From a candidate division NPL-UPA2 bacterium Unc8 (lineage in GTDB: Bacteria > NPL-UPA2): 64,000 bases of DNA. A model generated the notes under the pieces. That model was given only the letters and a program-made list of their open reading frames with translations, ran no database searches and was not told where the DNA came from. The stretch lies in NCBI GenBank assembly GCA_003574845.1, contig NDHY01000004.1, positions 12,723-76,722 on the forward strand. The letters run 5' to 3'. Made by a program: the position numbers and the translations under genes. Positions 2,243-62,094 of this stretch are shown here, piece by piece; position 1 is the stretch's first letter; each line of letters begins with the position of its first letter.

Positions 2243-5068
2243 TTGATGGGGGAGAAAATTATCATTAAGGGGGCGCGGGAACACAATCTCAAGAACATTA
2301 ATGTAGAGATTCCCAGAAACAAGTTAGTTGTCCTTACCGGAGTCTCGGGCTCAGGAAAATCATCACTTGCCTTTGACACTATCTATGCTGAAGGGCAGAG
2401 AAAATATGTAGAATCGCTTTCTGCCTATGCCCGCCAATTCTTAGACCAGATGGAAAAACCGGATATGGATGAAATTAGCGGACTTTCCCCTGCCATCTCC
2501 ATTGAACAAAGAAAGCCCGGCGCTAATCCCCGCTCTACCGTTGGAACGGTAACTGAAATCTATGACTACCTTCGGCTGCTCTTTGCCCGTGCCGGCACTT
2601 CTTACTGCTACAAATGCGGCAAAAAGATAGACTCGCAAGCCGTAGGAGAAATGGTAGATAGAATATTTAACTTGCCCGCCGGCACCCGCATTGAGGTGCT
2701 TTCGCCACTGGTGCGCGGGAGAAAAGGAGAATATATGAGTCTCCTTGAGCTGATTCGTCAGGATGGATACAGTAAGGTAAGAATAGATGGAAAAACTTAT
2801 AGCCTTTCCGAAGAAGTAAGGCTAAACAAAAATAGAAAACATAACATTGAAGTAATCATTGATAGATTGAGTATCAAAAATGAGAACAAGAGCCGCCTTG
2901 CCGACTCTCTTGAAACAACGCTCAGTTTAAGCAATGGACTTGCTCTCATTGTCATCAATCAAAACAGCCCCCGGGGATGGGAAAGAGAAACTCTCTTTAG
3001 CGCTACTTTTTCCTGTCCTCAATGCGGCATTTCCTATGGAGAGATTAATCCACGCATTTTTTCTTTTAACAGTCCCTATGGAGCATGCAATACATGCGCC
3101 GGCCTGGGGAAAAGCACAGAGATTGACCCTGATCTTGTGATACCTGACAAGAGAAAATCCATAAGGGAAGGAGCAATAGGTCCCTGGCAGGGCGGAGGAA
3201 GAAGAATTCGGTCTTATTACCGCTGGCTTCTGAGGATGCTTTTTAGGGAATGTGATGTTGACCCTGAACTCAAATTCGAGAAGCTTACCTCTGAAAAACA
3301 GAAGGCGGTTCTTTATGGCTCGGGAGACGGGAGATTTGAAGGAGTAATTCCTAACCTTGAGCGCCGCTTTAAAGAGACAAAGAGCGATTATGTTAAAAAG
3401 CAAATACTAAACGTTATGAATTTTCTTCCCTGCGTCTCTTGTCACGGAGCGAGATTAAAAAAAGAAAGTCTGGCAATAAAAATAGATAACAAATCAATCG
3501 CTGAGGTAACGGCAATGTCAGTAACGGCAGGACAGGCGTTCTTTGACAATTTAGAACTTGCTGGCGAGAAGAAGGTTATTGCTCGGGAGATAGTAAGTGA
3601 GATAAGTAAGCGTCTTTCTTTCCTGATAGAGGTGGGGCTCAGCTACCTGACGTTGGACCGGGAAACAGCCACATTATCCAGTGGAGAGGCAGAAAGGATA
3701 AGGCTTGCATCTCAAATCGGCTCGGGGCTGGTAGGTGTGCTTTATGTGCTTGACGAGCCATCAATTGGATTACATGCTCGGGACAACCAAAGGCTTCTCA
3801 ATGCCCTCGTGCGACTCCGTGACCTTGGGAATACCATCCTCGTGGTTGAGCATGATGAGACAACAATAAGAAGTGCTGACCATATTATTGACCTTGGCCC
3901 TGGGGCTGGAAACGACGGTGGTTGGTTGGTTGCAGAAGGAAAATTAGATAGGATTATGAGCTCCCCGCAATCTCTGACAGGAAAGTATCTAAAAGGTGAA
4001 TTACAAATTAAAGTTCCTCGTTTGAGACGCCAACTAAAAGGGATATTTCTTGAAGTTAGAGGAGCAAGAGAAAATAACCTGAAAAACATAAACGTGCAGA
4101 TTCCAATCGGGGTCTTTACCTGCGTTACCGGGGTCTCAGGCTCAGGAAAGTCAACTCTCATCGTTGATACTCTTGAAAAAGCTCTTTCTCGCATCTTGCA
4201 TCGGGCTAAGGTTGGTTCTGGAGAATATGACAGTATCTCAGGAAATGAACATATTGATAAAATGATAGTTATTGACCAGGCGCCCATTGGACGAACCCCC
4301 CGTTCCAATCCTGCTACTTATATAGGAGTGTTTACATTTATTAGAGAATTATTTTCATTGATTCCTGAGGCAAGAGAGAGAGGATACAGGTTAGGTAGAT
4401 TTAGTTTTAATATTAGAGGAGGAAGGTGCAATGCCTGTCGGGGCGACGGTATTATTAAGATTGAAATGCACTTTCTCCCGGATGTCTATGTTCGCTGTCA
4501 GACCTGCGGTGGAAAAAGATATAATAGGGAAACATTGGAGATAAAGTATAAAGACAAAAGCATTGCTGATGTCCTTGATATGACGGTTGATACAGCCCTG
4601 GATTTCTTCAAAAACATTCCGCAAATAAAGAAAAAACTGGAAACTCTTAGCAATGTGGGGTTGGGATACATAAGATTAGAGCAGTCTGCCCCAACCCTCT
4701 CCGGTGGAGAAGCGCAACGGGTAAAATTAGCGGCAGAGCTCAGTCGGCGGGGAAGTGGGAAAACTCTCTACATTCTTGATGAACCGACAACGGGGCTCCA
4801 CTTTGCTGACATAGAAAAGTTGCTGCAAGTGCTCTCCCGATTAGTAGACGCAGGAAACACTGTACTTGTTATTGAACACAACCTTGATGTAATTAAAACG
4901 GCAGATTACATCATAGACCTTGGGCCAGAGGGCGGAGATGGCGGGGGAGAGGTTGTAGCCACAGGAACACCTGAAGAGGTTGCTGTCAACGGAAATTCTT
5001 ACACAGGAAAATTCCTCAAAAAACTGTTAATAGGGAAGGGCTTTGGTAACGTCAAGGAAAGTGTGTAA
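2243..5068 (+). CDS. uvrA: Excinuclease ABC subunit A
   Basis: Two ABC ATPase modules ([35 protein letters not shown] and a second GVSGSGKST), zinc-finger Cys clusters, 941 aa. Confidence 0.95.
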
Positions 5069-6425
5069 ATTCATAAAGTGCACCTTTCTCCATTAATCTT
5101 AAACTGATTGAAATCTTTTAGGAGCCGAGCTCCCCAGTGATTATTCAGATGATTAAAGATACAGTAGATTATCCTCTCACAACTGGCCTGGTTAGTGAAA
5201 CAATTCATGGTTCTTACCCGTCGCCTTACCTCTCGGAAAGACCTCTCTACTACATTCGTTGTCCTTATCTTAACTCTATGCTCTTTAGGACAATCCAGGA
5301 AAGCTAACAGTTCATCTAATTCTCTCTCTATGCATCTTACCGCCTCTGGCTTTATCTCTATCCACTTCTTCGCCCAGGATTTGTAAATTCTCACGGCTTC
5401 TTTCTTATTATCTGCCAGATAAATCTTGCCTGCTTCTTTGGTACACTCCTTCTGATACTTCTTCGGTAGATAGTTAGATACGTTCCTTAACTTGTGCACC
5501 CAGCAGGCCTGACGAGGAACTTCTGGATATACTGTCTCTAAGGCTTTATGTAACCCTTTACAGCCATCGGTGGTGATTAATTTGAGCTCTTTACCATCTA
5601 ATCCCCTGTTGTAGAGATCCGTCAGAAACTGTTCCCACTTGACCTCAGATTCTACCCCTACTACCCGGAATCCTATTAGTCTGCGTTGGCCCATCACCGT
5701 TATCCCATAAGCTACTAAAATTACTTTCTTCTTCCCTTTAAGAACGCCTTTTATCTTCAGATGTATCCCATCCAGAATTAGATATTGGTACTCATCAGTT
5801 AATTTCTGCCGGTGAAACTTCTTAACCTCCTTATCCAATGCCTTGGTGACATTAGATACTGTACCAGCACTTACTGGAGCATCCAGAAGAGCACTTAAGG
5901 CTTCTCCAACTCTTCTGGTGCTTACCCCGCAGATAAACACATCTCTGATAGCCTGATCTACTGCCTTCTGCCGCGCCTGGTAGTTCTTGAATACCCTGGT
6001 CTGGAATTTTCCCTTCCTTAATCGGGGCACCTTTAAATCTTCAATAGGTCCTTCATGAGTGAGAAAACGTCGGTATCGGAACCCATTACGGTAGTCTATC
6101 TTGTTCTCATTTCTCTCATGCCACCGAGAATGAGTGTAAGCTTCCACTTCCCCTCTCATCGTTGATTCCATCAACCTCTTAAGTGCCTGCTTCATATATG
6201 TCCTGGTGTTGACCCAGAAATCCTCCTCACGATTTTCCTTGATTTCTCCCCACCATTCCTTTAATATTTCCTCAGGCCTTAGTTGCCTACTCTGCACTAT
6301 TTCCATTGGGTGTACCTCCTTTCTCCTTTGGGCGAGCATTATTGCCCAACCCTTCTTTCTGGGAGAAAAGGTACACCCTTTTTTATCTTATCTCAAGCCT
6401 TTTCAAACCTGAATTTACACACTTT
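5058..6425 (-). mobile_element. IS256-family insertion sequence with 16-bp perfect terminal inverted repeats (AAAGTGTGTAAATTCA)
   Basis: Left end 5058-5073 AAAGTGTGTAAATTCA; right end 6410-6425 is its exact reverse complement. A single transposase ORF lies between them. No flanking direct repeat was found. Confidence 0.8.
5071..6339 (-). CDS. IS256-family (mutator-type) transposase
   Basis: 422 aa, with DGCKGL and LILDGIHLKIKG-type motifs and a basic C-terminal region typical of IS256 transposases. Confidence 0.85.
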   Translation of the reverse strand: MLAQRRKEVHPMEIVQSRQLRPEEILKEWWGEIKENREEDFWVNTRTYMKQALKRLMESTMRGEVEAYTHSRWHERNENKIDYRNGFRYRRFLTHEGPIEDLKVPRLRKGKFQTRVFKNYQARQKAVDQAIRDVFICGVSTRRVGEALSALLDAPVSAGTVSNVTKALDKEVKKFHRQKLTDEYQYLILDGIHLKIKGVLKGKKKVILVAYGITVMGQRRLIGFRVVGVESEVKWEQFLTDLYNRGLDGKELKLITTDGCKGLHKALETVYPEVPRQACWVHKLRNVSNYLPKKYQKECTKEAGKIYLADNKKEAVRIYKSWAKKWIEIKPEAVRCIERELDELLAFLDCPKEHRVKIRTTNVVERSFREVRRRVRTMNCFTNQASCERIIYCIFNHLNNHWGARLLKDFNQFKINGERCTL

Positions 6426-6454
6426 ATTTTATATTACCAATCAAAATCGAACAC

Positions 6455-13536: not shown

Positions 13537-13550
13537 ATGCATTTAATCGC

Positions 13551-13650
13551 TAAAAGCAGAAGCCAGAATCCAGAAGCCAGAATTCAGAATAGAAGAAGTA
13601 TAGGCTTCCAGCAACTTGCTGACTTCTGACTCCTGAATTGGTGGCGTTGT
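13551..13650. repeat. CAGAAK-unit tandem repeats arranged as an imperfect palindrome
   Basis: gcagaagccagaatccagaagccagaattcagaa ... ttctgacttctgactcctgaattgg. The same unit family recurs at 25499-25600. Confidence 0.7.
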
Positions 13651-19373: not shown

Positions 19374-19560
19374 TTAAAAATCTCCTTTATTGTTCTAAAT
19401 AAATCCTACCCCCTTACTCCGCGGAGGTTCAAGGATACAGCAATCCGAATCAAAAGTCCAAATAAATAATCAGCATTATTTTGACACGACCCCTTAAAAA
19501 ACTTAACATGTGACAGCAGAATGTAGTATAATCAGGAAATGACGTGCTTTGTTGTGATTA

Positions 19561-25498: not shown

Positions 25499-25678
25499 AA
25501 GTAACCTCCCTATCTTAAACAGGAGCCAGAATTCAGAATTCAGGAGCCAGGAGCCAGAATTCAGAATTCAGAAGTCAGAAGCCAGAATTCAGAAGTCAGA
25601 ATCTGAGATTTGTCATTTCTATGTGCCTCTGTGCCTTTGTGCCTTTGTGCCTCTCTAATAGCCTACAGCCTACAGCCT
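25499..25678. repeat. Composite tandem-repeat spacer (CAGAAK units, GTGCCTYT units, CAGCCTA units) between the two transketolase subunit genes
   Basis: aggagccagaattcagaattcagg...gtgcctctgtgcctttgtgcctttgtgcctctctaatagcctacagcctacagcc. Confidence 0.8.
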
Positions 25679-29591: not shown

Positions 29592-30107
29592 TTAATATTT
29601 CATTAAGTAGTAAATCTTATACTTCTTTAGTTTATCGCGACCGTGAAGAAAGGCAAGTTCAATCAAAAAAGTGCAAGCGATAACCCTACCACCAAGTTTT
29701 TCTACCAATTCCACCACACTTTTTACAGTTCCACCGGTAGCCAGAACATCGTCAACAATTAAAATATTTTCCCCTTTCGTAATTGCATCTTGATGTATTT
29801 CCAGGGTATCGGTGCCATATTCTAATTCATAAGTAACATTAATTTTCTTCCAGGGTAATTTATTTTTCTTTCTTACCGGGACAAAACCACAACCAAGTTT
29901 ATAAGCAAGCGCCCCGCCAAAAATAAATCCACGTGCTTCCATGGAAACAATTTTATCAATCTTCTTTTTTCTCAATTTCTCTGCTAACAGATTAATTGTT
30001 TCTTTAAAAACTTTCCCCTCTTTAAGTAAAGTAGTAATATCTTTAAAAATTACACCTTTTTTAGGAAAATCAGGCACATCCCGAATAAATTTTTTTAAAC
30101 TTTTCAT
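29592..30107 (-). CDS. apt: Adenine phosphoribosyltransferase
   Basis: N-terminal IRDVPDFPKKGVIFKDIT and PRPP-binding ILIVDDVLATGGT. Confidence 0.9.
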   Translation of the reverse strand: MKSLKKFIRDVPDFPKKGVIFKDITTLLKEGKVFKETINLLAEKLRKKKIDKIVSMEARGFIFGGALAYKLGCGFVPVRKKNKLPWKKINVTYELEYGTDTLEIHQDAITKGENILIVDDVLATGGTVKSVVELVEKLGGRVIACTFLIELAFLHGRDKLKKYKIYYLMKY

Positions 30108-30119
30108 TACTATTTACCT

Positions 30120-30170
30120 CCAAAATCACCCCTGACAAATGGTCAACATTATTCTGATACGACCCCTTAG
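30120..30170. repeat. Solo copy (about 51 bp) of the MITE-like terminal repeat; its terminal CCCCTTA contains the ppcA stop codon
   Basis: ccaaaatcacccctgacaaatggtcaacattattctgatacgaccccttag matches 36579-36629 at about 44 of 51 positions. Confidence 0.6.
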
Positions 30171-31624
30171 CCCAGAAATTTTCTCAAGCTTGCTGCTCTC
30201 AGGATATGTTCTTCCAATTCTTTTGCTTTGTCTTCTTTCAATGAGGTTGCGATGTAATTTGTCACTTCCCTATACTCCTCATCTGGTTGAAAATCACCCA
30301 GAAAATCCACAACTCTTGCCTTAAGGTTTTGCGGCAGGAAAGCAATGTCTGGATTAAAATACCCAATCGCATCTCTTAAATCGTTTTCAAAGTTCACATA
30401 AACCTCTTTGATAAATTGAAAATCGTTATCATCTAAGGCATTCAAGCCTAAAATTTCCGGAGGAAGTCCAATAGAGTAAAGCGCAGCAGTAAATGCTATC
30501 GCTCTTGGCAATGTAATTCCTCCTATGCTGCGTGAATAGCCAAAGAGTCCTATGTGCAGCTTTCTTTTTCTTCTTCCCGGAATGTATTTTGCCACTTTAT
30601 TAATCATCGGCGCCAATTTTACAATCTGACTTACATACTCATCGCTATATTTCCTCATTACCCTCAGGCATTTCTCTTCATCTATCTCCTGCGGCAGGCT
30701 CGTTTTTCTCTCCTGTAATTTCCTTATGGCTTCTCTGACCTCTGCTGGCGGATTATCATATTTGAACGCAGATTGAATGGTAAAAGTATGAGCGCTTGGA
30801 TATTCTTTTGTAACTCTCTCCACAGTTTGCGGTTTGAGATTACCCCTGAAAGGAGCCGAGCCAACTCCCACAATAGGATAAATTTTGACATCAATCTCTT
30901 CTGATAATTTTTGCAATTTCTGAAGAGCGATTTTATTTAAAAGAACAGCGCTAACAAGTCCATAATTCATTGCCGGGTCTGACCTCGCCAGAAAGACCCG
31001 CTGATATTCCACTTTTTTATTCTGCAGGTACGCTCCGGTTATGTTGTGAGCGTCAAGCATGTGCTCCCAATCTTCAAAAAGAGGGATAACATTTATCTTC
31101 TCAGGTTTGAATTCTCCAATCCACTCAGCAATTGTTATATCTTTCTCTCTAAATGATTTATGCTGCTTTCCCACCACAAAATCGCAATAATATCTATAAA
31201 TCCTATCAATACATTCAGAAGAAGCTGTCATGGGCAAAATGACTTCAAATATGGGTGAGGTATCATCTTGATAAAATAACTTAGCGGCATCAAATGACCT
31301 GGGGATGCTATCCAGTGTTTCCAGTAAAATCTTTGCCTCTCCCTTCTCTACGGTTGGGTTTGGAACACGTAAGGTTATAAAAAGGTCCTTACCCAGTCTA
31401 TTTTCCCTGAAAAATGATTCATATTTTGTTAATAATTTTTTAACCACAAAACTATCAACTTCCTTGCCCTCGCAATCCCACATCTGTTCATCGCATCCTA
31501 AGTGCGAAAATGCATAGTATGCTTCCTGGACTTCATCTTCCCCGCCAAGCTCGGTGTGCGCTGCAAAAAACGGAGGACATACATTATCAGGATGTTGCGT
31601 GCTCATGCACTTTGGTATTTTCAC
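30167..31624 (-). CDS. ppcA: Archaeal-type phosphoenolpyruvate carboxylase
   Basis: N-terminal MKIPKCMSTQHPDNV is diagnostic of archaeal-type PEPC; 485 aa. Confidence 0.85.
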   Translation of the reverse strand: MKIPKCMSTQHPDNVCPPFFAAHTELGGEDEVQEAYYAFSHLGCDEQMWDCEGKEVDSFVVKKLLTKYESFFRENRLGKDLFITLRVPNPTVEKGEAKILLETLDSIPRSFDAAKLFYQDDTSPIFEVILPMTASSECIDRIYRYYCDFVVGKQHKSFREKDITIAEWIGEFKPEKINVIPLFEDWEHMLDAHNITGAYLQNKKVEYQRVFLARSDPAMNYGLVSAVLLNKIALQKLQKLSEEIDVKIYPIVGVGSAPFRGNLKPQTVERVTKEYPSAHTFTIQSAFKYDNPPAEVREAIRKLQERKTSLPQEIDEEKCLRVMRKYSDEYVSQIVKLAPMINKVAKYIPGRRKRKLHIGLFGYSRSIGGITLPRAIAFTAALYSIGLPPEILGLNALDDNDFQFIKEVYVNFENDLRDAIGYFNPDIAFLPQNLKARVVDFLGDFQPDEEYREVTNYIATSLKEDKAKELEEHILRAASLRKFLG

Positions 31625-34899: not shown

Positions 34900-35040
34900 A
34901 ATGAACCCCATTAGTAAGACACAAAGGCACACTTGAATTTCGGTAATTTGAGTTTTGAGTTTGTTTAGAGTTTAGAGTTTCATATTTAGAGTTTAGGCTT
35001 CTCTGTGCCTCTGTTTCTAGTGAGTAAGGCTCCGAGAAAA
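34900..35040. repeat. Tandem-repeat block (TAGAGTT/TTGAGTTT units, GTGCCTCT units)
   Basis: aatttgagttttgagtttgtttagagtttagagtttcatatttagagtttaggcttctctgtgcctctg. Nearly the same string recurs at 46180-46260. Confidence 0.75.
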
Positions 35041-36227: not shown

Positions 36228-36348
36228 TTTTTCTATGATACTAATAAAGCTTTCACTCTGTCAAGAAACTATTACAGAAATTATTACAAGATTATTAAAG
36301 GTAAGCGTTCAGCAGTCTGCTGAAAGCTGACCGCTGATGGCTGAATGC

Positions 36349-36628
36349 TTAGGGGTCGTATCAGAATAATCTTGACTATTTGGAGTCCCAGATTTGAGGT
36401 CAGTGCAAGGTGCGACGAGGGCAGTGTGCCCGCTGTGGCACATAACCGAGGAACAACCGCCGCAAGGGCCCAAAGACGGGACCCCCCGAAGGGCCAGGTC
36501 GCTTTTGGGCTGCGACTGTGTCGCTCATCGCTTCCGTAGCGCTTTGGCTACGCTTCACTCTTCGTTCCTTGTCTCGCTCCAAAATCACCTCTGGCAAATA
36601 GTTAATGTTATTTTGATACGACCCCTTA
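36349..36628. mobile_element. MITE-like non-autonomous element: about 280 bp, about 35-bp terminal inverted repeats, GC-rich non-coding core
   Basis: Left end ttaggggtcgtatcagaataatcttgactatttg is the reverse complement of right end caaatagttaatgttattttgatacgaccccttac at about 30 of 35 positions. The core has many short hairpins and no plausible ORF. The right terminal TTA is the topA stop codon. Confidence 0.5.
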
Positions 36629-38671
36629 CTCTGTGCTTGTATAATTGCATTTTTCATTGATGCACTGGAGGTAACCTCCTCTCCTCTTTTTTACCACAAG
36701 AAACCTGGCTCCGCAGGAAGGGCATTCTTTTGCAATCGGTTTATCCCAGGTGGAAAAATTACACTCTGGGTAACGATTGCAGCCAAAGAAGATTTTCTTT
36801 TTTCGTGTCCTTTTTTCCACAATTTCGCCATCACACTTATCTTCGGGACACTTTATACCAAGACCAATCGGTGCAGTATATTTGCACTGTGGATAGTTTT
36901 TACAAGCGAAAAATTTTCCGTACTTTCCAATTTTTATCGTAAGATTACCGTCACATTCAGGGCAGGTTCTGTCAGTGGCAATCTCCATTTTTTTTACTTT
37001 ATCATTTGCCTTATCCAGCATAGCAATAAATGGATGGTAAAAGTCACTCAACAATTTCATCCAGTCAGATTTTCCGTCTTCAATCCTATCCAGCTCATTT
37101 TCTATGTGAGAGGTAAACTTTAAATCCATTATCTTCGGAAAACGTGCAACAAGCAGATTAATCACCATTACTCCAAGTTCGGTTGGGTAAAATTTACCAT
37201 CAACCTTTTCTACGTATTCCCGCTGCTCAATCGTTTGAATTATCGGAGCATATGTACTTGGTCTGCCAATTCCTTCTTCTTCAAGCACTTTTACCAGCGT
37301 AGCATCAGAGAATCTGGGCAAAGGCTTAGTAAAGTGCTGCTTTTCCTGAAGAGCAATAACATCCAACTTTTCACTCATTTGAAGATCGGGAATATTACTT
37401 TCTTCTTCCTTATCACCATAGATAATTGTGAAGCCGAGAAACTTAATGTTCACTCCCTTTGCCTGCAAATTAAATTTGCCTGCCTTTATCTTAATTGTTG
37501 TCAGTTTAAACAAGGCTGGCTTCATCTGGCTGGCAAGGAAGCGGAGCCAGATCATGTGATAGAGCCTGTACTGTTCAGGCGAAAGAAATTCTTTCATTTT
37601 CTCTGGCTCTCGTCGGATGCTCGTTGGCCTTATTGCCTCATGAGCTTCCTGCGCTCCTTTCCTTGAGCGGTAGACGGGAGATTTAGAAGGAGCAAAATCC
37701 CTTCCAAATTTCTCTTTGATATAAGTAGATGCTTCTTTCTGGGATTGCGAGGAAAGACGCACCGAATCAGTTCTCATATAAGTAATCAACCCTACTCTTT
37801 CCTTCCCGATTTCAATCCCCTCATAGAGCTCCTGAGCAATGCGCATCGCCTTAGTTGGTGTAAATCTAAGTTTTCTTGCTGCCTCCTGCTGAAACTGACT
37901 TGTAGTAAATGGCGGCGGAGGATTTTTCTTTTGCTCCTTTTTCTCTATGCTTTCAACAAAAAACTCTTCTTTTCTTAACTCATAGATTACTCTCTTTGCC
38001 TCTGATTCATTATCAATCTCTGCTTTTTTGCCACTGATTTTTTCCAATTTTGCTTCAAAATCCCCTTCTTCCCCCACCTTCTTCTTTAGCTTCGCAGCAA
38101 TTGTCCAGTATTCCCTGGAAACAAAATCGGCAATTTCTTTCTCGCGGTCGCATACTATCCGCAGCGTTACTGACTGCACTCTCCCGGCACTTAAGCCCTT
38201 GCCAATCTTTTTCCAGAGAAAAGGACTAAGCTTATAGCCGACAATACGATCAAGAATGCGGCGCGCCTGCTGAGCTTTCACTTTGTTTAAATCTATTTCC
38301 CTGGGGTTTTTAATTGCTTTTTCAACCTCTTCTTTGGTAATTTCATTAAAAGTAACCCGATAGAGGTTATCTCCACCAAGCACTTCTGATAAGTGCCAGG
38401 AAATCGCCTCTCCTTCCCGATCAGGGTCTGAAGCAAGAAACACTTTCTCAGCACTCTGGGAGTTCTTTTTTATCTCTTTAATCACCTCTTTTCTTTGAGG
38501 AATAATAATGTAATGAGGACGGAAGCCATCTTCCGGGTCAATGCCAAATCTATCCCTGGGAAGGTCGCGGATATGCCCCAGACAGGACTTGACACTATAA
38601 CTGCTTCCCAGAAACTTATCTATCGTTCTCGCTTTTGCTGAAGATTCCACAATTACCAATAACTTTGGCAT
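36626..38671 (-). CDS. topA: DNA topoisomerase I with C-terminal zinc ribbons
   Basis: N-terminal LVIVESSAKARTIDKFLG Toprim, catalytic Tyr region, three C-terminal Cys4 ribbons; 681 aa. Confidence 0.9.
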   Translation of the reverse strand: MPKLLVIVESSAKARTIDKFLGSSYSVKSCLGHIRDLPRDRFGIDPEDGFRPHYIIIPQRKEVIKEIKKNSQSAEKVFLASDPDREGEAISWHLSEVLGGDNLYRVTFNEITKEEVEKAIKNPREIDLNKVKAQQARRILDRIVGYKLSPFLWKKIGKGLSAGRVQSVTLRIVCDREKEIADFVSREYWTIAAKLKKKVGEEGDFEAKLEKISGKKAEIDNESEAKRVIYELRKEEFFVESIEKKEQKKNPPPPFTTSQFQQEAARKLRFTPTKAMRIAQELYEGIEIGKERVGLITYMRTDSVRLSSQSQKEASTYIKEKFGRDFAPSKSPVYRSRKGAQEAHEAIRPTSIRREPEKMKEFLSPEQYRLYHMIWLRFLASQMKPALFKLTTIKIKAGKFNLQAKGVNIKFLGFTIIYGDKEEESNIPDLQMSEKLDVIALQEKQHFTKPLPRFSDATLVKVLEEEGIGRPSTYAPIIQTIEQREYVEKVDGKFYPTELGVMVINLLVARFPKIMDLKFTSHIENELDRIEDGKSDWMKLLSDFYHPFIAMLDKANDKVKKMEIATDRTCPECDGNLTIKIGKYGKFFACKNYPQCKYTAPIGLGIKCPEDKCDGEIVEKRTRKKKIFFGCNRYPECNFSTWDKPIAKECPSCGARFLVVKKRRGGYLQCINEKCNYTSTE

Positions 38672-39975: not shown

Positions 39976-40043
39976 TCAGATTCTATACCAAAAAACTGCA
40001 CAAAATGCAATGCCTTTACTCATACTGTAGGCTGAAAGCTGAT

Positions 40044-40077
40044 AGCTGATAGCTATTTTTTCTTGACGGGATTTTGG
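40044..40077. repeat. 34-bp exact repeat agctgatagctattttttcttgacgggattttgg (copy 1), preceded by GCTGAWAGC tandem units
   Basis: Identical to 53304-53337. Contains TTGACG. Sits upstream of leuC. Confidence 0.7.
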
Positions 40078-40162
40078 GGGGTGTAGTAGGCTTTATATCA
40101 GGTAGATAGACTGATAGCTAAACCCTGAACCCTTTCCCGAACGGAGCGAGAGTAAGCTTGTT

Positions 40163-43101: not shown

Positions 43102-43683
43102 ATTAACGAAAAACAAAAAATCAGGAAAAAATTTCTTGAAGAAAGAGGACATCTATCAGAAGTTTTTGTTACTGAAAACAGTGCAAAGATATGGGAGAGA
43201 CTCTCATCGCTAAGAGAATTCCGGGAAGCAAAAACTATTATGTTCTATGCAGCAAAAGAAAATGAGGTAAGAACCGAGAATATGATTAAGGAATCCATCC
43301 GTATGGGGAAAAGGGTGACGGTCCCCGTGATGATGAAAGAAAGGACACTGTCTCCATCTCTTCTGACCGATTATGATGCAGAACTAACTGCCAAACGTTT
43401 TAAAATATTGGAGCCGAAGGAAGAGTGTCTTCATTTTTTGCCGATTGAGGAGATTGAAGTAATTATTGTTCCCGGCGTCGTTTTTGACAGGAATAGAAGT
43501 AGAATTGGATTCGGAAAAGGATTTTATGATAACTTTTTAAAGGAAATCAGTAGCAAAACATGCGCAATCGGAATCGCTTATCAATTTCAGATAGTTGATA
43601 AGCTACCGGTTGAGGAAACAGATATCTCAATAGATATTATTGTAAGCGAAAATGAAGTTATTATTAGCCCCACGGGGATTTGA
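43102..43683 (+). CDS. 5-formyltetrahydrofolate cyclo-ligase (MTHFS); no canonical start codon
   Basis: The only ATG (43240) would truncate the conserved N-terminus. The in-frame upstream translation INEKQKIRKKFLEERGHLSEVFV...FYAAKENE matches the MTHFS N-terminus. The C-terminal GFGKGFYD motif is present. Confidence 0.65.
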   Translation: MNEKQKIRKKFLEERGHLSEVFVTENSAKIWERLSSLREFREAKTIMFYAAKENEVRTENMIKESIRMGKRVTVPVMMKERTLSPSLLTDYDAELTAKRFKILEPKEECLHFLPIEEIEVIIVPGVVFDRNRSRIGFGKGFYDNFLKEISSKTCAIGIAYQFQIVDKLPVEETDISIDIIVSENEVIISPTGI

Positions 43684-43737
43684 ACCCCGGTCTCCAGACT
43701 GAGAATCTGGCATCCTGGGCCTCTAGACGATGGGGCC
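43665..43737 (-). tRNA. tRNA-Glu (anticodon CUC)
   Basis: Folded by hand into a cloverleaf: acceptor GGCCCCA/TGGGGCT, D-arm GTCT-AGAGGCCCA-GGAT, anticodon stem CCAGA/TCTGG with loop TTCTCAG, T-arm CGGGG-TTCAAAT-CCCCG. It is highly similar to bacterial tRNA-Glu and has no encoded CCA. Confidence 0.75.
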
Positions 43738-43789
43738 AGAGGAATAATAAATTGGCACTTATTGATGCGACACTACCAGAACACAGAGA

Positions 43790-44815
43790 TTAAGGCAAAG
43801 AAAAATGGTCATATCCTGCTGGAAAGAGCCGGTGGGAGTTGCCTTTTTTGTCAATTAGTAACAACTCTTTTTTCTTGCTAATCTCACCTATTTTGCTTAT
43901 GGAGACCCCGAGCACATTGGTGATTGGTGATTGGTGATTGGTGATTGGTGCTCTTGTGCTCTTGTGCTCTTCTTTGTGCCTTTGTGCCTTTGTGCCTTTG
44001 TGCCTTTCTTTTATGGCTGCAGCAGTGAAGAGAAGCTGATAATCCTCTCCTCCTTCAAGAGCCAATTTTAACGGAGCTTTTCCGATTTTCTTTGCCGTTA
44101 TTCTGGTCTCATCAGAGATTGGGATTGCTTCCTCATAAATTTTTGCTCCTACCCTGCTTGCTTCGCAGATATGCATAATGTCACTGGAAAGCCCATCACT
44201 TATGTCAATCATTGAAGTTGGCTTAAATTTCTTAATAATTTCTCTCCCTTCATTAATAAGAGGCAAAGTGGGAATGTGTTTGCCCGCTAACCTTGCCGCA
44301 GCAGTTGCTCCAAGGTGCCCTGTAACAAATATTTCATCTCCTGATTTTGCCCCGCTCCGATGCACGAGAAACTTCTCGGTCACCTCACCCAGAAGAGAGA
44401 TATTTATCATCATACCTTCAGGGGACCTTGCAGTGTCACCTCCAACGATGGCAACTGCAAATCTTGCTGCTACTTTTTTTATTCCACGATAGACTTCATT
44501 GACGAATGTTACCGATGTTTCCGGGGTGAGAGCAACAGAAACAACGGCATATTTAGGAATGCCTCCCATTGCAGCAATATCACTTAAATTCACCGCCATT
44601 GCCTTCTCTCCCACCTGATATGGAGTAAGCAAGTCTGATGAAAAGTGAATATTTTCAATCAGGCTGTCCGTAGTAAATAAAATAAACTTTTTGGCGCCGC
44701 ATCTGATGACCGCAGCATCATCCCCAATTCCAGTAACTACGGCAGAGTTCACAATAGGAATCCCCTGTGTAAAGTGCTTGATTAGATTAAACTCTCCCAA
44801 CTCCTTCAGATTCAT
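43790..44815 (-). CDS. thiL: Thiamine-monophosphate kinase with in-frame repeat-encoded insertion
   Basis: N-terminal GEFNLIKHF...GIGDDAAVI (AIR-synthase-like fold) and C-terminal GYDHF ThiL motifs. An 84-bp tandem-repeat block (43917-44008) is translated in frame near the C-terminus. Confidence 0.85.
43917..44008. repeat. Composite microsatellite block (TGATTGG x4, TGCTCTTG x3, TTTGTGCC x4) lying inside the thiL coding sequence
   Basis: ggtgattggtgattggtgattggtgattggtgctcttgtgctcttgtgctcttctttgtgcctttgtgcctttgtgcctttgtgcc. Confidence 0.85.
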
Positions 44816-45959: not shown

Positions 45960-46290
45960 TCCAGTAAAGCGCTACATCTGTAGGCGGTTTTTCTGAAGAT
46001 AATTTAAATCAAACTTCGCCCATATAGTCAAGAAAAACAACTACAAATCCCAAATAAGAAGACCACCAGAGCACCAGTCACCCACAGGGGTCAGGGATCA
46101 GGGGTCAGAATCCAGAATTTAGGTTTTAGCCCTGAATCAAGTTCAGGGTAGGTTTTAGGTGTCAGGTTTTAGAGTTTAGAGTTTTGAGTTTTGAGTTTGT
46201 TTAGAGTTTAGAGTTTCGTATTTAGAGTTTAGGCTTCTTTGTGCCTCTGTGCCTCTCTAATAGCTTTCAGCCTACAGCCTGAGCGGTTTG
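45960..46290. repeat. Approximately 330-bp divergent intergenic region filled with tandem repeats (GGGGTCAG, TAGAGTTT/TTGAGTTT, GTGCCTCT, CAGCCTA units)
   Basis: cagaatccagaatttaggttttagccctgaatcaagttcagggtaggttttaggtgtcaggttttagagtttagagttttgagttttgagtttgtttagagtttagagtttcgtatttagagtttaggcttctttgtgcctctgtgcctctctaatagctttcagcctacagcc. Confidence 0.8.
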
Positions 46291-53270: not shown

Positions 53271-53303
53271 TTGAATCCTTAAGACTGACGGCTGAATGCT
53301 GAG

Positions 53304-53337
53304 AGCTGATAGCTATTTTTTCTTGACGGGATTTTGG
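53304..53337. repeat. 34-bp exact repeat agctgatagctattttttcttgacgggattttgg (copy 2)
   Basis: Identical to 40044-40077 and, like copy 1, preceded by GCTGAWNGC tandem units. Confidence 0.7.
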
Positions 53338-53354
53338 GTTTTGGAATTTACCTA

Positions 53355-53396
53355 CCCCTAACGGGGTAAACGAAGTAGCTCGGTTATTTTAAGTTA
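53355..53396. repeat. Hairpin (CCCC-TAAC-GGGG) followed by repeat AAACGAAGTAGCTCGGTTATTTTAAGTTA (copy 1)
   Basis: A second copy (27 of 29 identical) lies at 61924-61952, also preceded by a GC hairpin. A partial TAACGGGGTAAAC copy is at 54404-54416. Confidence 0.6.
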
Positions 53397-53495
53397 TCTG
53401 AAATTAGAAACCCTTGTGATGAAAGAAAAAGGGAAAGAGAAACGAGTAAAGATACGAACAGAATAACCAGAAGTTTGGTGAGGGAGAGATAAAAC

Positions 53496-54248: not shown

Positions 54249-54558
54249 GCAGAGAGGTAATCAAAACTTACAGATATAGTTAGAAATAGATGAAGTACTT
54301 CGTCGGGCACACAAGTCCTAAAGACTTGGGTCGTGCCAATTTGGGAGTATAAATCCCATTAGAAGTATCAATTTTGCTACCCACTAAGAAGACATAATTT
54401 CTAACGGGGTAAACAAACTCAAATTTCAAAACTCAAAACTCAAAAGAAAGAGGAGAAAAGGACGGTTCACTTAATTGCATCAAAAAGGAAGGAAGAGAAG
54501 GGATGGAAATTCTATTTTTATTTCCACTTAAAGGCAGAGAAAAGAAAAGGAGAGTGAT

Positions 54559-61894: not shown

Positions 61895-61952
61895 CTGCCC
61901 GCCAATCTTTGTGGCGGGGGCATAAACGAAATAGTTCGGTTATTTTAAGTTA
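61895..61952 (+). terminator. GC hairpin (GCCCGCC...GGCGGGG) followed by repeat AAACGAAATAGTTCGGTTATTTTAAGTTA (copy 2); probable purK terminator
   Basis: Stem read directly. The T-rich repeat follows. Same architecture as 53355-53396. Confidence 0.45.
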
Positions 61953-62094
61953 GATGTAATTTTCGGTTAAGGAAATAAAAATGATGAATAACGAAAAAGT
62001 AAAAGTATCAAAAAAACCAATTTGCAGAAGTATTGTATTATTGGCTATCGGGGTATTTAACTAAGAAAGCCATCAAAAAAAGTGCCAAAGCCCA

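Follow-up and report, generated by a model that had tools for sequence, protein, structure and literature searches.

The 3′ end of the topA gene of the candidate division NPL-UPA2 bacterium Unc8 adjoins a 274-bp sequence that the evidence presented here supports as a member of an undescribed family of small, structured mobile DNA elements resembling miniature inverted-repeat transposable elements (MITEs). The element lies in a 64,000-nt stretch of contig NDHY01000004.1 (assembly GCA_003574845.1, positions 12,723–76,722), referred to here as the window, whose numbering is used throughout. Unc8 is a 996-kb metagenome-assembled genome (MAG) from the serpentinising springs of The Cedars (PMC6305446); it is 87.6% complete and, with its relatives, constitutes the lineage NPL-UPA2, or Ca. 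Lithacetigenota. The original prediction, made from the letters of the window, described a MITE-like sequence with inverted termini and a structured GC-rich core, and read it as a non-autonomous transposon or, alternatively, as a mobile structured RNA. Its mobile-element reading is borne out by further copies at numerous sites, both within this lineage and beyond it in other phyla, and none of the outcomes that it named as refuting (a known noncoding RNA, no other copies, an insignificant inverted repeat) occurred. Either of its two options, transposon or structured RNA, may hold.

An inverted-repeat search delineated two 32-nt arms (36351–36382 and 36595–36626) that are 88% complementary, spaced by 212 nt and, across copies, covary between the two ends, in agreement with the inverted termini proposed from the sequence. 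Between its TA flanks the element occupies 36352–36625 (~275 bp). The GC content of the core is 0.65–0.66, compared with 0.34–0.45 in the flanks, and the 212-nt core at ~65% stands out from a genome of roughly 40%. When up to three mismatches are allowed, the window contains four occurrences of the 18-nt terminus GGGGTCGTATCAGAATAA, with 0.03 expected, and the arms are of two types, L (...AATAATCTTGACTATTTGGAGTCCC) and R (...AATAATGTTAACCATTTGCCAGAGGTGATTTTGGAGCGAGAC). On the sense strand, which is the minus strand of the window, the R-type arm (36595–36625), identified from the inverted repeat and the junction sequence, starts right after the topA stop codon and forms the 5′ strand of the closing helix P1. 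It is followed by the GC-rich core (36383–36594; composition and consensus fold), whose branched arms, domains A and B, are joined at an apical CCUUCGG (36486–36492), and by the L-type arm (36352–36382; inverted repeat and covariation), the 3′ strand of P1.

The host gene arrangement places topA upstream of the element and efp downstream. The topA open reading frame (ORF; 36626–38671, minus strand, 681 aa) contains the Pfam domains Toprim, Topoisom_bac, and Zn_ribbon_Top1, and its annotation by the Prokaryotic Genome Annotation Pipeline (PGAP) is given in the supplement of PMC6305446. As predicted, its TAA stop (36628–36626) directly adjoins the right arm, as seen from the ORF end and the junction sequence; the stop is at the same time the right flank, its third base doubling as the base adjoining the element and its TA being a putative copy of the target. 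On the plus strand, TTA can be read directly on both sides of the element (36349–36351 and 36626–36628), and the TA at 36350–36351 is the putative duplicated target on the left. A promoter-like site for efp (TTGACA-18-TATCAT, 11/12 matches; 36235–36264, minus strand) lies downstream of the element, which therefore sits in the 3′ untranslated region of topA. An 85-aa ORF is annotated inside the element (36400–36657, minus strand; RII00413.1, locus tag B9J77_02720). Its frame is broken by indels and stops in other copies, as expected from the earlier view that the interior holds no credible ORF.

A single strand of the element is predicted to adopt a closed three-way fold composed of the ~30-bp helix P1 and two branched arms, and this fold is under purifying selection. 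Compared with dinucleotide shuffles, the window element folds far better whichever strand is taken (RNA z = −6.8 for plus and −5.7 for minus; DNA z = −5.9). RNAalifold applied to eight full copies yielded a structure of 85 pairs, and compensatory double changes were seen in 38. The cells were 93.6% paired, as against 81.6% in shuffles, the covarying pairs numbered 38 as against 20.9, and none of five measures was reached by any shuffle (0/500). When the 3′ partners were slid by 1–3 columns as a control, 31–42% of the cells were paired and at most 12 pairs covaried.

All helices are given here on the minus strand. P1 pairs 36604–36625 with 36352–36373 (22 consensus pairs, 13 compensatory) and in the window copy extends over the full 32-nt repeat. 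Domain A is closed by P2 (16 pairs), in which the 5′ strand 36576–36595 (GCCAGAGGUGAUUUUGGAGC) pairs with 36493–36510 (GCCCAAAAGCGACCUGGC); its cells are 97.7% paired, with swaps at columns 33/134 (CG to GC) and 35/131 (AU to UA). P4 (36535–36552) is a CGUAGC-loop-GCUACG hairpin with a variable loop, six pairs, three of them covarying, and 100% of its cells paired. The long helix of domain B, P5, joins 36461–36485 to 36382–36407 in 22 pairs, 11 of them compensatory, and its GGUCA/UGACC is replaced by CCCGU/ACGGG in three of the distant copies described below (L046–L048). P6 (36421–36446) is a GUGCC...GGCAC hairpin with a stem extension (nine pairs, six covarying). The loop lengths of the hairpins vary, and the stems are kept. 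Of the hairpins noticed by eye in the original prediction, GCGACTGTGTCGC lies in conserved sequence, whereas GGGCAGTGTGCCC and GTCGCTTTTGGGCTGCGAC are not conserved pairings, their place being taken by the GUGCC/GGCAC hairpin of P6 and the long-range P2.

Thirty further members, known only as ORF translations, were back-mapped to unambiguous codon positions, and they repeat the swaps: at columns 33/134, CG is found in 4 and GC in 14, and at columns 40/127, UA in 7 and CG in 9. The whole element has the form of a head-to-head pseudo-dimer of two ~137-nt modules. Its core aligns with its own reverse complement (z = 2.5–9), and the family hidden Markov model (HMM) matches the reverse strand of every full copy over the full length with 57–91 bits. 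The presumed terminal inverted repeats have the character of a helix that closes a conserved fold, with variable tips and a conserved core; because the core is conserved and the tips covary, the pattern is that of a functional fold.

Two DNA scans, one of a single genome per species and one of metagenomes, found copies only in the NPL-UPA2/Ca. Lithacetigenota lineage. In the former, the terminus was present on four contigs of Ca. Psychracetigena formicireducens BS525 (Ca. Lithacetigenota), and the latter gave 12 contig ends from the data sets BBPD, BBPF, and BBPG of The Cedars. Nearly all matching short-read contigs end within the element, and their flanks give at least 7 distinct loci (about 7–8). 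Searches of plasmid and phage collections with blastn gave no match to the element, and a core-pattern scan of viral contigs gave none either.

The element is a mobile multicopy repeat that is polymorphic between strains at the topA-side junction. In two contigs whose TopA is 100% identical (L021 and L022), unrelated octamer repeats stand in its place after the topA stop. These contigs differ from the window by more than the element and are therefore not true empty sites; the tail of the extra sequence after topA in L021 matches nothing elsewhere. The efp-side junction with the L arm is kept in three other assemblies. In BS525 (L016/L024), an R-type arm stands at the identical efp-side flank (…gctgaatgcTTA|GGGG), where Unc8 and the three other assemblies have the L type, and this flank carries ~55 additional bases relative to window positions 36340–36420. 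Either an in-place inversion through the arms or an independent insertion would produce the opposite arm.

Solo ends of 44–49 nt are found as well. An R-type end of ~49 nt plus TAA (30118–30169, minus strand; nhmmer, model positions 1–49, E = 4e-6) lies between the stop of a 485-aa ORF (30167–31624, minus strand) and the start of an apt-like ORF (29592–30107, minus strand), for which its GGAGG is the apparent ribosome-binding site; its sequence is identical in strain BS525 (L010). A further solo end is present at L029. A diverged one (GGGGTCGTGTCAAAATAATGCTGA...) matches the terminus pattern in a divergent intergenic region (19445–19496, minus strand), a weak assignment since the family HMM does not detect it.

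The spurious ORF provided a handle for diverged copies. A homologue search followed by a profile search of 1.84 billion representative proteins gave 35 representative clusters at E ≤ 1e-3, and the encoding contigs were looked up for full DNA copies. Full copies were found between secY and adk (L041a), between an rpmJ-like ORF and rpsM (L041b), after frr (L040), as a pair of inverted copies 70 nt apart (L039), in frame within a DUF2344 gene (L045), between an lptC-like gene and the next gene (L046), between two opposite-strand genes (L047), and immediately upstream of an RNase III gene (L048). Exact-sequence look-ups of flanking proteins assigned L041 and L045 to Ca. Omnitrophota and L047 to Ca. 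Ancaeobacter aquaticus of Ca. Auribacterota. Together with Ca. Lithacetigenota, this brings the candidate phyla in which the family occurs to at least three.

Three near-invariant core blocks recur in the distant copies: GAUUUUGGAGCGAGACAAGGA, GAUGAGYGACGCAGUCGCAGCCCAAAAGCGGCC, and CGCGCCUUGCA. The terminal helix is altered in sequence, with 5′ strands such as GGGGTTGAACCAAAATAATATGGAC, GGGACTTAGAAGTAATAATATGAC, and CTGAGTCATCCATAAATAATG, and its strands are still complementary; the arms of distant members lack GGGG. In L040, an AT-rich hairpin of ~48 nt (1936–1990) is inserted at the junction region of domain B, which evidently tolerates such expansion. Some copies interrupt genes, breaking into DUF2344 at position 134 of its 176-position profile, into Tag at position 117 of 177, and into a methyltransferase. 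Several of the intragenic copies truncate the host domain, as in P0007 (methyltransferase) and P0017 (Tag glycosylase). In L045 (3352–3630), the DUF2344 frame stays open for 93 codons without a stop, and the right-hand TA is absent. The L048 copy (1510–1790), whose terminal helix is ~33 bp long, shares part of its length with rnc, the RNase III gene as called; the proximity may be a coincidence or may place a substrate beside its own enzyme. Upstream of another copy (L028, 163–783, minus strand), a 75-aa GIY-YIG-like protein (MEKNYYVYILASKRNGTLYIG...) and a 73-aa antitoxin-looking protein are encoded.

Read inward, most R arms follow a TAA and most L arms a TTA. In 7 of the 9 complete copies both termini have a TA within 0–1 nt, and so does every single end. 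The original prediction had proposed inspecting TTA(N) for a target duplication; TWA flanks form a true 3-bp direct repeat in only 3 of the 6 copies of the GGGG subfamily, and TA is therefore the consistent unit. It belongs to the actual stop codon of topA, of secY (L041a), of frr (L040), and of the 485-aa ORF at the solo end. A stop codon is regenerated when the element enters the TA of TAA or TAG, because its termini begin with A or G.

REP-associated tyrosine transposases (RAYTs; REP, repetitive extragenic palindrome) are usually single-copy, and five in a 1-Mb genome is unusual. The Unc8 annotation lists five genes of RayT type (REP-mobilising Y1 transposases, K07491/COG1943), all outside the window and one of them ranking 109th in expression, together with three IS256 and two InsO-like genes (PMC6305446). 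No IS5, IS630, or IS200 is named in it. The autonomous insertion sequence (IS) with matching termini that the original prediction proposed to search for was not encountered in the window, in ~150 kb of loci, or in the annotation of the 87.6% complete Unc8 MAG. The window contains one IS256 (5043–6440; ORF 5071–6339, minus strand, 422 aa, IS256 family transposase B9J77_02575). Its 31-nt inverted ends (5043–5073 and 6410–6440) are unrelated to the arms of the element, and it was rejected as the mobilising partner. An rve gene is located 180 nt away from one copy known from a protein record.

Transcription of the element in situ reaches roughly a third of the level of its neighbours: the reads per kilobase per million (RPKM) for mRNA were 250 and 339 for B9J77_02720, 703 and 1080 for efp, and 907 and 634 for topA (PMC6305446, Supplementary Data 1). 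No promoter of its own was found for the element; the efp promoter lies downstream. Beyond two near-invariant G·U pairs, the variable pairs of the DNA copies comprise 15 G·U and 14 A·C, and the same 15 and 14 are obtained in the protein-derived set. Because variable G·U is no commoner than A·C, these pairs do not decide between RNA and single-stranded DNA. The parity, the alignment of the core with its reverse complement, and the reverse-strand HMM matches form a signature of action on both strands or at the DNA level that fits a purely RNA-level reading poorly, and selection may act on the fold as RNA or as single-stranded DNA.

We compared the element with known small mobile repeats. It is under ~500 bp, noncoding, and bounded by terminal inverted repeats, and its copies are strain-polymorphic at unrelated loci, all as in MITEs; the cognate autonomous IS with the same termini that a MITE would have was not found in the sequences and the incomplete MAG annotation covered. 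The Correia/NEMIS repeats of Neisseria, the ERIC/IRU repeats of enterobacteria, and the RUP repeats of Streptococcus pneumoniae are TA-flanked bacterial MITEs. With these repeats, reviewed in PMC2229807 and PMC3184786, the element shares small size, noncoding multicopy character, long inverted termini, TA at both ends, transcribed intergenic sites near gene ends, and stable hairpins when transcribed. However, they are simple hairpins of 100–160 bp confined to one genus or family, whereas the element measures ~275 bp, has a branched three-way fold, and combines a core conserved across three candidate phyla with a terminal helix varying by compensatory change; nor is a cognate IS630-like transposase annotated in Unc8.

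Like REPINs, the element is a non-autonomous inverted doublet with a single-strand hairpin and an extragenic location near gene ends (PMC3116915, PMC3337134), and, as in the REPIN/RAYT system, its host encodes RayT-type genes, the five annotated in Unc8. REPINs are built from ~20–25-nt modules with a conserved GTAG head, measure ~70–110 nt in total, and are present in tens to hundreds of copies (PMC3116915, PMC3337134). In contrast, the element has ~137-nt modules, no GTAG head (its termini are GGGG or variable), about 7–8 copies, and a cross-phylum distribution. Rickettsia palindromic elements (RPE) are 100–150 bp long and mostly intragenic. RPE, reviewed in PMC2229807, are likewise palindromic mobile repeats able to sit in coding genes with the frame open, as in the DUF2344 gene of L045, whereas the present element is found mostly between genes, and several of its intragenic copies cut the host domain short. 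The ends of IS200/IS605 and of palindrome-associated transposable elements (PATEs) also need folded single-strand hairpins, show strand and orientation bias, and adjoin a short target; they have no terminal inverted repeats and carry subterminal left and right hairpins in direct orientation, unlike the 32-nt inverted ends seen here. Thus, the element shares traits with TA-flanked MITEs and with REPINs and fails the defining features of each.

On balance, we favour the explanation that this is a selfish, non-autonomous element whose fold serves mobility and operon-neutral insertion and which has no trans-acting RNA function. The fold would then be a requirement of a trans-encoded transposase that recognises structure, possibly a DDE enzyme specific for TA or a RayT-like enzyme of the Y1/HUH type with single-stranded DNA as its substrate. 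In a secondary role, it might render the insert harmless within operons: P1 would bring the upstream stop codon near the downstream start codon, and the compact GC-rich core would expose little unstructured RNA. Several observations weigh against this explanation. No mobilising enzyme has been linked to the element, and the best 25 of 113 Pfam families matched by 63 flanking ORFs are all housekeeping families, with no RayT or DDE gene beside any copy among them. No pair of empty and filled sites was recovered that would separate a duplicated TA from a TA owned by the element, or DDE from HUH. A conserved core with variable tips is the reverse of the classical DDE MITE pattern, and the ~80–85% identity of the cores between phyla seems to exceed what structure by itself would demand. 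Finally, the R-to-L strand is co-directional with neighbouring genes in about 12–13 of 16 loci, as judged from the flanking ORFs, and it is this sense strand that carries the apical C(UUCG)G and the two near-invariant G·U pairs, features that an RNA-level function would also explain. They are part of the case for a rival that we regard as possible though rather unlikely, in which the element is a mobile gene for a functional structured RNA, its ~210-nt core being a ribozyme, a protein-binding RNA, or a transposition guide RNA. The core would be freed from operon transcripts at P1, a stem processed by RNase III, for instance, and DNA mobility would be secondary. The conservation of the core over three candidate phyla while the P1 tips vary yet remain paired, the GC-rich core in AT-rich genomes, in situ transcription, and the copy right upstream of an RNase III gene are all in keeping with it. 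However, variable G·U is not enriched over A·C, the pseudo-dyad symmetry of the whole element is unusual in functional RNAs, and no own promoter, constant partner gene, or Rfam relative was found, some copies even interrupting genes. The RPKM below that of the flanking genes likewise argues against accumulation as a stable RNA species.

The remaining explanations fare worse than the selfish element and the functional RNA. We consider it improbable that the element is an ordinary IS-derived MITE with unselected structure, in which hairpins are a by-product of inverted repeats and cross-phylum similarity stems from recent horizontal transfer only. The element does have inverted termini and TA flanks, is multicopy, lacks an ORF, and contains assembly breaks, all of which speaks for such a MITE, but the compensatory double changes at 38 of 85 pairs far exceed both the shuffled and the slid controls, runs of five consecutive swapped pairs occur in internal helices, stems are preserved as loop lengths vary, and the cognate IS was not found. 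That the sequence is a small protein-coding gene for the 85-aa hypothetical protein B9J77_02720 is very improbable: although PGAP called the ORF, 35 ORF clusters have the conserved peptide ILERDKERR...AMSDAVAAQKRPGPSG in common, and one frame is open across whole copies, the frame shifts past the central region between copies, the P1 segment contains stops in several, the start codon is not consistent, the substitutions are paired nucleotide swaps that alter amino acids, and the segment matches no Pfam family. Derivation from the Tn3 family, as a Tn3-derived inverted-repeat miniature element (TIME), can be given hardly any credence. The arm begins with GGGG and is ~32–36 nt long, and its start, GGGGTCGT.TCAGAA, is one that we take to be similar to the 38-bp inverted repeats of Tn21 type; yet the arms of distant members do not begin with GGGG, the plasmid collection gives no match, and the 5-bp direct repeat expected of a TIME is absent (flanks GCTTA and TTACT), by which target-duplication criterion this origin is refuted. 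The earlier comparison by eye, in which no match to the RNase P, tmRNA, SRP, or 6S RNA consensus was seen, agrees with Rfam 15, in which the window copy has no match at the gathering score or at E ≤ 10; seven diverged loci at E ≤ 1 gave only generic long-hairpin microRNA matches across the L039 inverted pair. By eye, GAUGAG is present, but the CUGA or GAAA core of a hammerhead is absent, and for a group I intron the exon ends in A and the element in C. A retron was also rejected: the element is multicopy, and the annotation names no reverse transcriptase.

As a rule, the small repeats of bacteria, MITEs, REPs, and REPINs among them, are simple hairpins restricted to narrow lineages. The element stands apart in its branched fold with dozens of compensatory changes, its cross-phylum core, and a "terminal inverted repeat" that evolves like an RNA helix and not like a transposase-binding site. 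Tentatively, we entertain the thought that the core might have a biochemical role of its own, as a ribozyme, a protein-recruiting RNA, or the guide or recognition RNA or single-stranded DNA of a still unknown transposition system. The family might then represent mobile structured nucleic acids of a new class, large (~275 nt) and shared between phyla, that target the TA of stop codons and insulate themselves in operons, neither decayed IS nor REP-type repeats. With this element it becomes tractable to ask what a non-autonomous element requires of its own structure, be it a single-strand substrate, operon-neutral insertion, or RNA activity; it may also point to a mobilising enzyme, as yet uncharacterised, in uncultivated phyla whose genomes measure 1 Mb. 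In practice, short-read MAG assemblies break at the element, and it has generated at least 35 clusters of spurious "hypothetical protein" annotations in public protein collections.

Other repeats are present in the window. Intergenic tandem repeats of 7–8 nt (among them CAGAAGC/CAGAATT, TTTGTGCC, TTTAGAG, GCTGATA, and CCTACAG) occur at 13543–13603, 25520–25678, 34947–35014, 36319–36349, 40019–40078, 43962–44017, 46085–46283, and 54410–54445. Some of these blocks are 92–97% identical between loci, and one directly flanks the element on the efp side. A 55-nt direct repeat (40024–40078 and 53284–53338, 93% identical, ending in ...GCTGATAGCTATTTTTTCTTGACGGGATTTTGGG) lies upstream of two plus-strand genes and looks like a shared promoter region, and a 39-nt repeat (TAAACGAAGTAGCTCGGTTATTTTAAGTTATCTGAAATT) is found at 53367–53405 and 61923–61961 with 87% identity. 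The only Rfam or ARAGORN match in the window is a tRNA-Glu with the anticodon CTC (43664–43738, minus strand).

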